A stretch of DNA of 64,000 nt from Escherichia coli (GTDB lineage Bacteria; Pseudomonadota; Gammaproteobacteria; Enterobacterales; Enterobacteriaceae). The translations under genes and the position numbers were made by a program. The stretch lies in the NCBI RefSeq assembly GCF_022846255.1, contig NZ_AP025682.1; one strand, 5' to 3'. Position 1 is the stretch's first letter; the number at the start of each line of letters is the position of its first letter. Below are positions 14,454 through 29,380 of this stretch, one piece after another. Below the pieces are notes generated by a model, which did not search any database, was not told where the DNA came from, and was given only the letters and a program-made list of their open reading frames with translations.

Positions 14454-17303
14454 TTGAAATACCTTGCTTCTTTTCGTACAACCCTGAAAGCCTCGCGCTA
14501 CATGTTCAGAGCATTGGCGTTAGTGCTCTGGCTGTTGATTGCTTTTTCATCCGTTTTTTACATCGTTAATGCGTTACATCAGCGAGAATCGGAAATTCGT
14601 CAGGAATTTAATCTGAGTTCCGATCAGGCTCAGCGCTTTATTCAACGCACCTCTGATGTGATGAAAGAGCTGAAGTACATAGCTGAAAATCGCTTATCGG
14701 CAGAAAACGGTGTGCTTTCCCCGCGTGGACGAGAAACGCAGACGGATGTGCCTGCGTTTGAACCGCTGTTTGCTGACTCTGATTGTTCCGCAATGAGTAA
14801 CACCTGGCGAGGTTCTCTGGAGTCATTGGCGTGGTTTATGCGCTACTGGCGCGATAATTTTTCTGCGGCTTACGATCTAAACCGGGTATTTTTAATCGGC
14901 AGCGATAACCTCTGCATGGCTAATTTCGGTCTGCGTGATATGCCAGTGGAACGCGATACCGCGTTAAAAGCTTTGCATGAACGCATTAATAAATATCGAA
15001 ATGCACCACAAGATGATAGTGGCAGTAACCTCTACTGGATCAGCGAAGGTCCGCGCCCTGGCGTCGGGTATTTTTACGCCTTGACGCCAGTTTATCTGGC
15101 GAACCGGTTGCAGGCGCTTTTGGGTGTCGAGCAAACCATCCGGATGGAGAACTTTTTCTTACCTGGTACGTTGCCGATGGGGGTTACCATTCTTGATGAA
15201 AATGGTCATACCCTGATTTCGCTTACCGGACCAGAAAGCAAAATTAAGGGCGATCCTCGCTGGATGCAGGAACGCTCCTGGTTTGGCTATACGGAAGGGT
15301 TCCGGGAGCTGGTGCTGAAGAAAAATCTGCCACCCTCATCGCTAAGCATCGTGTATTCGGTGCCGGTTGATAAGGTGCTGGAACGCATTCGCATGTTGAT
15401 CCTTAACGCAATTTTGCTGAATGTGCTTGCCGGAGCTGCATTGTTTACTCTCGCGCGGATGTACGAGCGGCGTATTTTCATTCCGGCGGAAAGCGACGCC
15501 TTGCGACTGGAAGAACATGAGCAGTTTAATCGCAAGATTGTCGCCTCCGCGCCAGTGGGTATCTGCATTTTGCGTACCGCTGATGGCGTCAATATTTTAA
15601 GTAACGAACTGGCGCATACCTATCTCAATATGCTTACGCATGAGGATCGCCAACGGCTGACACAAATTATCTGTGGGCAGCAGGTCAATTTTGTTGATGT
15701 CCTGACCAGCAACAATACCAATCTGCAAATCAGCTTCGTCCATTCGCGCTATCGTAATGAAAACGTGGCCATTTGTGTGCTTGTGGATGTTTCTTCGCGC
15801 GTGAAGATGGAAGAGTCGTTGCAGGAGATGGCACAAGCAGCGGAACAGGCGAGTCAGTCAAAATCGATGTTCCTTGCCACCGTCAGTCATGAGCTGCGAA
15901 CGCCGCTGTATGGCATTATCGGTAACCTGGATCTGTTGCAAACCAAAGAGTTACCGAAAGGCGTCGATCGTCTGGTGACGGCAATGAACAACTCTTCCAG
16001 CCTGTTGTTGAAAATTATCAGCGATATTCTCGATTTCTCGAAGATTGAATCGGAACAGTTGAAGATCGAACCGCGTGAGTTTTCACCGCGTGAAGTGATG
16101 AACCACATCACCGCCAACTATTTACCGCTGGTGGTACGCAAGCAGTTAGGCTTGTACTGCTTTATTGAACCGGATGTGCCAGTGGCCTTAAATGGCGACC
16201 CGATGCGTTTACAGCAGGTCATCTCCAACCTGTTGAGTAACGCCATAAAATTCACCGATACCGGCTGTATAGTTTTGCATGTTCGCGCTGATGGCGATTA
16301 TCTCTCTATCCGTGTTCGCGATACCGGCGTGGGGATTCCGGCGAAAGAAGTCGTGCGCTTGTTTGATCCCTTCTTCCAGGTCGGAACGGGCGTACAGCGA
16401 AACTTCCAGGGGACCGGTCTGGGTCTGGCGATTTGTGAAAAACTGATCAGCATGATGGACGGCGATATCTCGGTAGATTCAGAACCGGGAATGGGCAGCC
16501 AGTTTACCGTGCGTATTCCGTTGTACGGCGCTCAGTACCCGCAGAAAAAAGGCGTGGAAGGGTTGAGTGGTAAACGCTGCTGGCTGGCGGTCCGCAATGC
16601 GTCGCTCTGTCAGTTCCTGGAAACCAGTTTGCAGCGCAGCGGCATCGTCGTTACAACATACGAAGGGCAGGAACCGACTCCCGAAGATGTGTTAATCACT
16701 GACGAGGTAGTGAGCAAAAAATGGCAGGGTAGAGCGGTAGTGACCTTCTGTCGTCGCCATATTGGTATTCCGCTGGAGAAAGCGCCAGGGGAGTGGGTAC
16801 ACAGTGTGGCTGCCCCGCATGAGCTACCGGCATTGTTGGCGCGTATTTATTTGATCGAGATGGAGAGCGATGATCCTGCTAACGCTCTGCCGTCGACGGA
16901 CAAAGCGGTCAGCGATAACGACGATATGATGATTCTGGTCGTGGATGATCATCCGATTAACCGGCGTCTTCTGGCAGATCAGTTGGGATCGTTGGGCTAT
17001 CAATGTAAAACCGCGAATGATGGCGTCGATGCGCTTAATGTACTTAGCAAGAATCATATTGATATCGTGCTTAGCGACGTCAACATGCCAAATATGGATG
17101 GTTACCGCTTGACGCAACGCATTCGTCAGTTGGGACTGACGTTGCCGGTTATCGGAGTAACTGCTAATGCGTTGGCTGAAGAGAAGCAGCGGTGTCTGGA
17201 GTCCGGTATGGACAGCTGCCTGTCGAAGCCGGTAACGCTGGATGTGATAAAACAGACGCTAACGGTATATGCCGAGAGGGTCAGGAAATCGCGGGATTCG
17301 TAG
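14454..17303 (+). CDS. rcsC: Hybrid sensor histidine kinase RcsC
   Basis: 949-aa ORF with HisKA/HATPase and C-terminal receiver domain; size and position match rcsC. Confidence 0.95.
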   Translation: MKYLASFRTTLKASRYMFRALALVLWLLIAFSSVFYIVNALHQRESEIRQEFNLSSDQAQRFIQRTSDVMKELKYIAENRLSAENGVLSPRGRETQTDVPAFEPLFADSDCSAMSNTWRGSLESLAWFMRYWRDNFSAAYDLNRVFLIGSDNLCMANFGLRDMPVERDTALKALHERINKYRNAPQDDSGSNLYWISEGPRPGVGYFYALTPVYLANRLQALLGVEQTIRMENFFLPGTLPMGVTILDENGHTLISLTGPESKIKGDPRWMQERSWFGYTEGFRELVLKKNLPPSSLSIVYSVPVDKVLERIRMLILNAILLNVLAGAALFTLARMYERRIFIPAESDALRLEEHEQFNRKIVASAPVGICILRTADGVNILSNELAHTYLNMLTHEDRQRLTQIICGQQVNFVDVLTSNNTNLQISFVHSRYRNENVAICVLVDVSSRVKMEESLQEMAQAAEQASQSKSMFLATVSHELRTPLYGIIGNLDLLQTKELPKGVDRLVTAMNNSSSLLLKIISDILDFSKIESEQLKIEPREFSPREVMNHITANYLPLVVRKQLGLYCFIEPDVPVALNGDPMRLQQVISNLLSNAIKFTDTGCIVLHVRADGDYLSIRVRDTGVGIPAKEVVRLFDPFFQVGTGVQRNFQGTGLGLAICEKLISMMDGDISVDSEPGMGSQFTVRIPLYGAQYPQKKGVEGLSGKRCWLAVRNASLCQFLETSLQRSGIVVTTYEGQEPTPEDVLITDEVVSKKWQGRAVVTFCRRHIGIPLEKAPGEWVHSVAAPHELPALLARIYLIEMESDDPANALPSTDKAVSDNDDMMILVVDDHPINRRLLADQLGSLGYQCKTANDGVDALNVLSKNHIDIVLSDVNMPNMDGYRLTQRIRQLGLTLPVIGVTANALAEEKQRCLESGMDSCLSKPVTLDVIKQTLTVYAERVRKSRDS

Positions 17304-17500
17304 GACGGATAAGGCGTTTACGCCGCATCTGGCATTCAGTGCAAATGCCAGATGCGACGCTGACGTGTCTTATCTGGCCTACTTTAATGTAATCTGTTGA
17401 AATAATGGGAATCGTAGGACGGATAAGGCGTTTACGCCGCATCCGGCAATCGGTGCAAATGCCAGATAAGACACTAACGCGTCTTATCTGGCCTACAGGT
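17304..17500. repeat. REP/BIME-type extragenic palindromic repeats between convergent rcsC and rcsB
   Basis: Two near-identical copies of GTAGGACGGATAAGGCGTTTACGCCGCATC(T/C)GGCA plus GCCAGATG/AAGACGCGTCTTATCTGGCCTAC palindromes typical of E. coli REP. Confidence 0.6.
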
Positions 17501-17502
17501 GA

Positions 17503-18153
17503 TTAGTCTTTATCTGCCGGACTTAACGTCACTGAAGAGAGATAATTCAGCAGAGCAATATCGTTCTCGACACCCAGCTTCATCATCGCAGATTTCTTCT
17601 GGCTACTGATGGTTTTGATACTGCGGTTCAGCTTTTTAGCGATCTCGGTCACCAGGAAACCTTCCGCAAACAGGCGTAGAACTTCACTCTCTTTTGGCGA
17701 GAGACGCTTGTCACCGTAACCACCAGCACTGATTTTTTCCAACAGGCGAGAAACGCTTTCCGGGGTAAATTTCTTCCCTTTCTGCAGCGCGGCGAGAGCT
17801 TTCGGCAGATCGGTCGGTGCACCTTGTTTCAGCACGATCCCTTCGATATCCAGATCCAATACCGCACTAAGAATCGCCGGGTTGTTGTTCATGGTCAGAA
17901 CAATGATCGACAGGCTTGGGAAATGGCGCTTGATGTACTTGATTAAGGTAATGCCATCGCCGTACTTATCGCCAGGCATGGAGAGATCGGTAATCAACAC
18001 ATGCGCATCCAGTTTCGGCAGGTTGTTGATCAGTGCTGTAGAGTCTTCAAATTCGCCGACAACATTCACCCACTCAATTTGCTCAAGTGATTTGCGAATA
18101 CCGAACAAGACTATCGGATGGTCATCGGCAATAATTACGTTCATATTGTTCAT
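17503..18153 (-). CDS. rcsB: Response regulator RcsB
   Basis: 216 aa from MNNMNVIIADDHPIVLFGIRKSL; LuxR-type HTH C-terminus. Confidence 0.95.
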   Translation of the reverse strand: MNNMNVIIADDHPIVLFGIRKSLEQIEWVNVVGEFEDSTALINNLPKLDAHVLITDLSMPGDKYGDGITLIKYIKRHFPSLSIIVLTMNNNPAILSAVLDLDIEGIVLKQGAPTDLPKALAALQKGKKFTPESVSRLLEKISAGGYGDKRLSPKESEVLRLFAEGFLVTEIAKKLNRSIKTISSQKKSAMMKLGVENDIALLNYLSSVTLSPADKD

Positions 18154-21153: not shown

Positions 21154-21246
21154 AAAAAAAACCGGATGCGAGGCATCCGGTTGAAATAGGGGTAAACAGA
21201 CATTCAGAAATGAATGACGGTAATAAATAAAGTTAATGATGATAGC
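21154..21246 (-). ncRNA. micF: MicF antisense sRNA (regulator of ompF mRNA)
   Basis: Minus strand reads GCTATCATCATTAACTTTATTTATTACCGTCATTCATTTCTGAATGTCTGTTTACCCCTATTTCAACCGGATGCCTCGCATCCGGTTTTTTTT, matching recalled micF; divergent from ompC; ends in hairpin plus U-run. Confidence 0.85.
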
Positions 21247-21397
21247 GGGAGATATTCTAGTTGCGAGTGAAGGTTTTGTTTTGACATTCAGTGCTGTCAA
21301 ATACTTAAGAATAAGTTATTGATTTTAACCTTGAATTATTATTGCTTGATGTTAGGTGCTTATTTCGCCATTCCGCAATAATCTTAAAAAGTTCCCT

Positions 21398-27575: not shown

Positions 27576-29234
<1,659 letters not shown>

Positions 29235-29380
29235 TGATGTGCCACATCCGGCATGGTATGCCGGATGTGGCGTATGCAGATAAGACGCGTCAGCGTCGCA
29301 TCAGGCAACCGGCTCGGGCGTTAGATGTCGGATGCGGCGTAACCGCCTTATCCGACCTGGCGGTTGCAGCACTTCACAGC
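29235..29380. repeat. REP/BIME-type palindromic repeats between mqo and eco
   Basis: GCCGGATGTGGCGTATGCAGATAAGACGCGTCAGCGTCGCATCAGGCA and GCGGCGTAACCGCCTTATCCGACCTGG type REP units. Confidence 0.5.

Follow-up and report, generated by a model that had tools for sequence, protein, structure and literature searches.

Organisation of the rcsC-rcsB gap

Within the window, by which we mean the whole analysed stretch of 64,000 nucleotides, the genes rcsC and rcsB converge on a gap of 199 bp (17304-17502). Both names come from the annotation of E. coli genomes that are 97-100% identical to this segment; its top match is E. coli strain 104 (chicken), at 100%, while K-12-type genomes match at 98%. It is textbook knowledge that E. 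coli carries REP/BIME clusters between converging genes, and the one described here is an ordinary, already catalogued element with nothing new in kind. The coding sequences and the parts of the repeat are as follows.

14454-17303, plus strand: rcsC coding sequence, 949 amino acids, from the list of open reading frames, named after matching E. coli genomes; C-terminus ...VRKSRDS*
17285-17398, plus strand: first repeat period of 114 bp (repeat search), running from the 15 rcsC nucleotides that precede GTAG through unit 1 and 16 nt into the linker
17300-17334, plus strand: Y unit of unit 1, inverted (GTAG first), with a window-specific T at 17329; Rfam naRNA4 alignment; hairpin of -12.2 kcal/mol
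17335-17345, plus strand: 11-nt head-to-head spacer of unit 1 (TTCAGTGCAAA)
17346-17382, plus strand: Z2 unit of unit 1 (CTAC last); Rfam alignment; hairpins of -19.5 (plus) and -16.5 (minus) kcal/mol
17383-17413, plus strand: 31-nt inter-unit linker, specific to the rcsC-rcsB locus
17414-17448, plus strand: Y unit of unit 2, inverted; Rfam alignment, unit census and folding
17449-17459, plus strand: 11-nt spacer of unit 2 (ATCGGTGCAAA); unit census
17460-17496, plus strand: Z2 unit of unit 2, whose 12-bp outer stem is perfect (GCCAGATAAGAC / GTCTTATCTGGC); inverted repeat 100% complementary
17503-18153, minus strand: rcsB coding sequence, 216 amino acids, from the list of open reading frames, named after matching E. 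coli genomes; stop codon at 17503-17505

The repeat search returned two direct repeats of 98 nt (17285-17382 and 17399-17496) with 88% identity and a distance of 114 nt between their starts; both copies hold internal inverted repeats. They contain four palindromic units of 35-37 nt, within the 30-40 nt expected of a REP, which are imperfect palindromes and alternate in orientation as in a BIME. Each full unit follows the same plan: an inverted Y (GTAGGACGGATAAGGCGTTTACGCCGCATC(T/C)GGCA), an 11-nt spacer and a direct Z2 (TGCCAGAT...ATCTGGCCTAC), so that GTAG stands at 17300 and 17414 and CTAC at 17379-17382 and 17493-17496. An earlier note on this DNA had described tandem REP/BIME units between the convergent genes, and the repeats, the GTAG and CTAC ends, the alternating orientation and the Rfam matches given below bear this out. 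Its statement that the two units differ by a T/C exchange stands for the Y units, of which this is the sole difference; over the 98 positions of the full units there are 12 differences, most of which fall in the spacer and the Z2 unit (GATGCGACGCTGACGTG vs GATAAGACACTAACGCG).

Tandem Repeats Finder reported nothing at 17285-17496, which is no evidence against the repeat, because the array falls short of two full periods at 88% identity.

The cluster reaches both genes closely. The rcsC stop codon TAG (17301-17303) consists of the final three bases of the GTAG of the first palindromic unit, and the CTAC of the last unit extends to 17496, which leaves 6 nt to the rcsB stop. Apart from this first GTAG, with its 3-nt overlap with the rcsC stop, all palindromic units are extragenic and lie in the 199-bp gap. 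Three short open reading frames in this region (17192-17392 and 17269-17400 on the plus strand, 17281-17442 on the minus strand) were rejected as spurious: they consist of repeat sequence and are broken up by its copy-number variation.

A census of related units in the window, in which the four palindromic units served as blastn-short queries, found them at just two other places, 29277-29354 with two units and 49480-49506 with one; the two further REP sites named in the earlier note are thus real. A 501-nt query spanning the units has a median of at least 26 related places per E. coli genome. The linker occurs at 4,471 places in 4,436 E. coli genomes, about once per genome and at this locus only.

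Several other features of the window were recorded in passing. Beside the REP pair at 29277-29354 lies a perfect 18-bp hairpin (29234-29272; GCCACATCCGGCAT...ATGCCGGATGTGGC), which matches the K-12 entry REP161 (eco/mqo) in a table of bidirectional terminators. On the minus strand, Rfam matches at gathering score were obtained for the MicF sRNA (21154-21247, 116.8 bits), a tRNA (46117-46190) and an L25 ribosomal-protein leader (49906-49931); the three fit the K-12 region from ompC-rcsD to rplY in reverse orientation.

Repeat class and the K-12 orthologue

Both units match the Rfam model RF02564 (naRNA4) over its full length of 77 positions on the plus strand, with 70.0 bits for unit 1 and 73.7 bits for unit 2 against a gathering score of 59.5 bits (E-values of 2e-10 and 4e-11 for the whole window). 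On the minus strand the scores of 48.7 and 52.5 bits are under the gathering score. The naRNA4 RNA is one of the six Y+Z2 repeats of REP325 (bioRxiv 10.64898/2026.03.23.713779; 2015 mBio paper). Because it holds one Y and one Z2, the match types our units as Y+Z2 doublets.

BIME-2 elements are described as tandem arrays, variable in copy number between strains, in which Y and Z2 alternate and the linker inside the doublet is short (PMC3333891). In the rcsC-rcsB gap we found Y/Z2 alternation, 11-nt spacers, tandem arrangement and 1-4 copies among 5,426 genomes. As the linker is specific to this locus and carries a copy of the rcsC tail, the element might nevertheless be filed as an atypical BIME.

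The long linker also raises the question of a BIME-1 (RIP/RIB) that recruits IHF, a class defined by Y and Z1 units, a long L linker with an IHF site and a single copy (PMC3333891). The minus strand of our linker does contain TTTCAACAGATTA, one mismatch from the IHF consensus WATCAANNNNTTR. However, an exact IHF consensus occurs nowhere in the rcsC-rcsB gap, the units other than Y are of the Z2 and not the Z1 type, and the long linker joins the tails of two doublets rather than the REP and iREP of one BIME. Moreover, BIME-1 elements are single (PMC3333891), and the copies here are in tandem. With Z2 units, no exact IHF site and tandem copies, this reading is effectively refuted, and we regard it as extremely improbable.

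The same locus has been mapped in K-12. Two entries for REP162, classed as 'Convergent' with the genes rcsB:micF:rcsD:rcsC, appear in the supplement of bioRxiv 10.64898/2026.03.23.713779; they cover K-12 positions 2316832-2316874 and 2316942-2316985 and are given there as bidirectional terminators mapped in an earlier study. The K-12 gap (MG1655 2316828-2317026) is also 199 bp long and aligns with the gap of the window without indels. In this alignment 2316832-2316874 corresponds to 17456-17498 of the window (Z2 of unit 2) and 2316942-2316985 to 17345-17388 (Z2 of unit 1). Thus, the K-12 termination sites coincide with the two Z2 hairpins of the window. Judged by sequence, the element is the E. 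coli orthologue of K-12 REP162 and consists of two tandem BIME-2-type doublets.

Copy number among E. coli strains

The earlier note expected the number of copies to vary between strains, and this proved to be the case: alleles of 1 to 4 units exist among 5,426 complete E. coli genomes. The linker, present in alleles with at least two units, was detected by blastn in 4,436 of them (81.8%). One unit was found in 980 genomes (18.1%), including Nissle 1917, where the one-unit allele matches in one place. At least three units, recognised as linker-unit-linker in a single 154-nt piece, occur in 32 genomes, and about 81% of the 5,426 carry two units, ST131 and K-12 among them. By subtraction, 10 genomes fit neither the one-unit nor the linker test. 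Two other queries are poorly suited to such counts. Megablast of the inter-unit junction undercounts (2,701 genomes), because K-12-type SNPs leave no exact word of 28 nt, and a flanked synthetic three-unit query does not discriminate, since overlapping pieces give 100% coverage in two-unit genomes.

Expanded alleles grow in whole periods. Strains 14EC033 and M18 carry three units in a gap of 313 bp (199 + 114), and MS 115-1 carries four in a gap of 427 bp (199 + 228). In these three- and four-unit alleles every period is exactly 114 bp, which confirms the register assigned in the window. Their middle units combine markers of unit 1 and unit 2 in a mosaic, which is not the same in 14EC033 as in M18. 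The exact 114-bp steps together with the mosaic units point to repeated unequal homologous recombination. In one-unit alleles the rcsC tail of period 1 is joined to a doublet of the unit-2 type, which is the expected product of a crossover within the shared segment GGGA(A/T)TCGTAGG...GCATC.

Smaller changes were also seen. In the ETEC strain L7_E1373 (L003:420-665) the 5′ arm of the unit-2 Z2 has been lost through a deletion of 18 nt, which destroys the hairpin nearest to rcsB. The penultimate residue of RcsC (residue 948; window 17296) shows an Asp/Glu polymorphism, with the codon GAT in the window and in K-12 and GAA in the one-unit alleles, in ETEC L7_E1373 and in other Escherichia species; GAA agrees with an ancestral ...RE* ending. 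Given that 1-4 copies and internal deletions are tolerated, the exact form of the element would seem to be under no strong constraint.

Origin of the array

The repeat does not begin at the first palindromic unit. The end of the linker (17399-17413; GAAATAATGGGAATC) is a decayed copy of the 3′ end of rcsC (17285-17299; GAAATCGCGGGATTC), with 11 of 15 nt identical, a level reached by only 47 of 200,000 random 15-mers from the window. Since the repeat reaches 15 nt into the rcsC coding sequence, the pair of units should stem from a 114-bp segmental duplication and not from two insertions. A simple duplication of rcsC tail and doublet does not account for the first 16 nt of the linker.

For comparison across genera we scanned for RcsB in one genome per species and extracted the rcsB-rcsC gaps. 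In Kluyvera, Citrobacter braakii, Klebsiella oxytoca and others, RcsC ends in RE* with a TAA stop codon. The RcsC end reads ...CGCGGGAATAA in Kluyvera and related genera, which indicates that the GAAATCGCGGGAA stretch is native coding sequence. In all Escherichia loci the junction reads ...CGGGA(A/T)TCGTAGG, so that the protein ends in RES* or RDS*, with one added Ser and a stop supplied by the repeat.

The number of units varies within Escherichia as well. In E. albertii two units are joined by the same linker as in E. coli, and two other Escherichia species (L011, L016) have two units of which the second is decayed, with the linker in decayed form; a further species (L010) has a single unit. 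Two units may be ancestral and one derived, although this order, which rests on few outgroups and on a set of returned loci from which E. fergusonii is absent, is not fully settled.

The simplest history that we infer from these comparisons has three steps. In the Escherichia lineage, a doublet would first have inserted itself at the stop codon of rcsC, turning the ancestral ...RE-TAA ending into ...R(E/D)S-TAG, with the TAG taken from the GTAG of the repeat itself. Next, the doublet would have been duplicated in tandem together with the 15 nt of rcsC in front of it and 16 nt of spacer, 114 bp in all. Finally, unequal homologous recombination between the 114-bp periods would remove or add whole periods and so yield alleles of 1-4 units.

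In E. albertii the Y stems of the two units have GGTG...CACC where E. coli has GGCG...CGCC. Such a compensatory change common to both units suggests gene conversion between units within a species.

Outside Escherichia the gap holds other structures. Its length ranges from 36 to more than 1,000 bp across genera. Salmonella and Citrobacter have a REP pair of another kind, arranged tail to tail. A classic bidirectional intrinsic terminator (for example AAAAAGGCCCGCAAGGGCCTTTTTT) occupies the gap in Enterobacter cloacae, Pluralibacter, Leclercia and Enterobacteriaceae bacterium 89, and these gaps have no REP or only an extra one. It seems that the rcsB-rcsC slot needs a 3′-end hairpin of some kind. 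A parallel case was met in Enterobacteriaceae bacterium MGYG-HGUT-00110 (L037:2723-2995), where four copies with a period of 79 each contain a REP and a repeat of the rcsC tail; this amplification of tail plus REP is independent of the duplication in Escherichia.

Two further observations concern single assemblies. Gaps of 697 bp in Leclercia adecarboxylata NCTC13032 and 1,193 bp in Mangrovibacter plantisponsor have had something inserted. One locus labelled 'Chryseobacterium sp. 18061' (L048) carries an enterobacterial RcsB (98% identical) beside rcsC, and this assembly is probably mislabelled or contaminated.

Folding of the units

The repeat region is strongly structured. For a 221-nt region, no dinucleotide shuffle folded as well as the native sequence on either strand (z = -6.1 and -8.9). 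The hairpins of the four palindromic units range from -9.1 to -25.3 kcal/mol; those of Z2 are the strongest as isolated RNAs, and they fold better than all 200 shuffles on both strands. The unit-2 Z2 hairpin has -20.3 kcal/mol on the plus strand and -25.3 kcal/mol on the minus strand (rcsB-sense RNA), the latter being the value tabulated for K-12 (bioRxiv 10.64898/2026.03.23.713779, supplement).

The two doublets fold in different ways. Unit 1 prefers a single hairpin of 83 nt in which Y pairs with Z2 (-45 to -47 kcal/mol), a shape favoured by the window-specific T at 17329, and unit 2 folds as two hairpins.

REP stems usually contain a mismatch, but the outer stem in the Z2 of unit 2 is perfect. 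At this site GATGCGACG is retained in E. albertii and in one other Escherichia species. The transposase TnpA-REP needs the stem mismatch in vitro (PMC3333891). A Z2 that lacks this mismatch may therefore be fixed in place and selected for the strength of its hairpin.

The matches to RF02564 could be taken to mean that the locus produces naRNA4-like small RNAs that bind HU and condense the chromosome, as proposed for REP325. Both units do score above the gathering score on the plus (rcsC-sense) strand, unit 2 adopts the two-hairpin shape, and a HU/nucleoid role for Y+Z2 two-hairpin RNAs was put forward in the 2015 mBio paper. However, the model describes a generic Y+Z2 doublet, and a match shows only that such a doublet is present. 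In addition, the gap has no promoter-like site and unit 1 prefers one long hairpin over two. The proposed function is itself disputed: neither deletion of REP325 nor overexpression of naRNA4 had an effect on nucleoid size, and no REP-REP contacts were found, in a study whose senior author is common to the 2015 mBio work (bioRxiv 10.64898/2026.03.23.713779). We therefore rejected naRNA4 as a functional assignment and consider this role highly improbable at the rcsC-rcsB locus.

Proposed role at the 3′ ends of rcsC and rcsB

The explanation that we favour, and hold to be very probable as a whole, is that a REP162-type cluster which arose by duplication provides hairpins that act as 3′-end structures for both transcripts. 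The anatomy, homology, copy-number dynamics and origin of the cluster come from the present analysis; the functional steps would follow from the K-12 literature, and on that basis a 3′-end role is likely. RNA of the rcsC sense and RNA of the rcsB sense would both fold into these hairpins, above all the two of Z2. The hairpins would serve the converging rcsC and rcsDB transcription units as 3′-end structures, halting or attenuating converging transcription and blocking 3′ exonucleases.

In the interval 17000-17800 we found no sigma-70 promoter and no hairpin-plus-T-run terminator on either strand. The G+C-rich hairpins are thus not followed by the T run of an intrinsic terminator, yet the K-12 termination sites map to Z2. 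Of the related REP325 it is reported that it is a partly Rho-dependent terminator and a stabiliser of mRNA in the 3′ UTR and that it does not compact the nucleoid; the same study found about 60% of REPs between converging genes and higher expression of convergent pairs with a REP, while mRNA half-lives showed no significant genome-wide difference between REP-associated genes and controls (bioRxiv 10.64898/2026.03.23.713779).

The units might instead be neutral, selfish passengers, spread by the REP-associated transposase and by recombination, with no local role beyond filling the gap. This would agree with the copy number of 1-4 among strains, with the internal deletions through which units have decayed in ETEC L7_E1373 and two further Escherichia species, and with gap contents that are unrelated between genera and range from 36 to more than 300 bp. 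On the other hand, every Escherichia locus keeps at least one intact strong hairpin beside each stop codon. The Z2 of unit 2 is now a perfect palindrome, more stable and free of the mismatch that the transposase needs in vitro, and the Y stems of E. albertii show a compensatory change from C:G to T:A. Termination sites lie on the Z2 hairpins in K-12, and in genera without REPs an intrinsic terminator fills the slot. We thus give the passenger reading a low, though appreciable, probability.

Alternatively, the main role might lie at the level of DNA. Positive supercoiling accumulates between converging genes. As a BIME-2, the cluster could act as a strong DNA gyrase site that removes positive supercoils between the converging units. 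It has the Y and Z2 composition of the type cleaved by gyrase in vivo and sits between converging genes, and cleavage sites are over-represented in BIME-2 elements (PMC6379681). They occur in only a subset of these elements, however (PMC6379681), and the supplementary files of that study, possibly incomplete, contain no entry for rcsB, rcsC or REP162. By analogy with other BIME-2 elements such a role may exist, but we think it unlikely; it would be compatible with the role at the RNA level.

Apart from transcription and RNA decay, the hairpins may touch upon translation. According to Liang et al. 2015, as cited in PMC12306157, REPs at most 15 nt from a stop codon stall ribosomes. With one hairpin at the rcsC stop and another 6 nt past the rcsB stop, terminating ribosomes may be slowed at both genes. 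Effects on translation termination, like the binding of gyrase, are possible additions to the 3′-end role.

More speculatively, and in our view very improbably, the number of units (1-4) might naturally tune the Rcs envelope-stress phosphorelay. Were this so, ribosome stalling, tmRNA tagging of RcsC and RcsB and the stability of the 3′ ends could depend on how many units there are and how strong the nearest hairpin is. The ratio of kinase to regulator would then differ by lineage, for example between Nissle 1917 with one unit and ST131 or K-12 with two.

Significance and comparison with known systems

The cluster as such matters little, as it is already catalogued and mapped in K-12. Its value, which is modest, lies in being a worked example of the birth and change of a REP cluster. 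The repeat gave RcsC a new stop codon and one extra residue, growth of the array duplicated a segment that includes coding sequence, and exact periods of 114 bp are gained and lost within the species. The one-unit and multi-unit alleles form a natural series for studying the effects of REPs on the expression of neighbouring genes.

The closest known element is K-12 REP162, with which the present one is orthologous: the locus, the length of 199 bp and the four units and their order are identical. A few bases differ. At 17329 the window reads T (GCATCTGGCA) and K-12 C; at 17366 it is T (GACGTGTC) against C, at 17394 C against T, and at 17419 A (GGACGG) against C.

With the BIME-2 elements of Gilson and Bachellier (PMC3333891) the cluster has in common the alternation of Y and Z2, the short linker within the doublet, the tandem arrangement and the variable copy number. 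Unlike in those elements, the sequence between the doublets is not a dispersed BIME motif but is specific to this locus and contains a copy of the rcsC coding tail, and there are only 1 to 4 doublets.

REP325/naRNA4 (RF02564; yjdM-yjdN) is built from the same Y+Z2 two-hairpin unit, as the full-length match above the gathering score indicates. It differs in that its six units stand between tandem genes, whereas the two units described here stand between converging genes.

Lastly, the cluster resembles the REPINs that are mobilised by RAYT / TnpA-REP in its inverted pairs of REPs that are able to pair and in the GTAG present on all units. It departs from them in two respects: the growth of the rcsC-rcsB array is explained by unequal homologous recombination, and the Z2 of unit 2 is without the stem mismatch required for TnpA-REP binding in vitro (PMC3333891).
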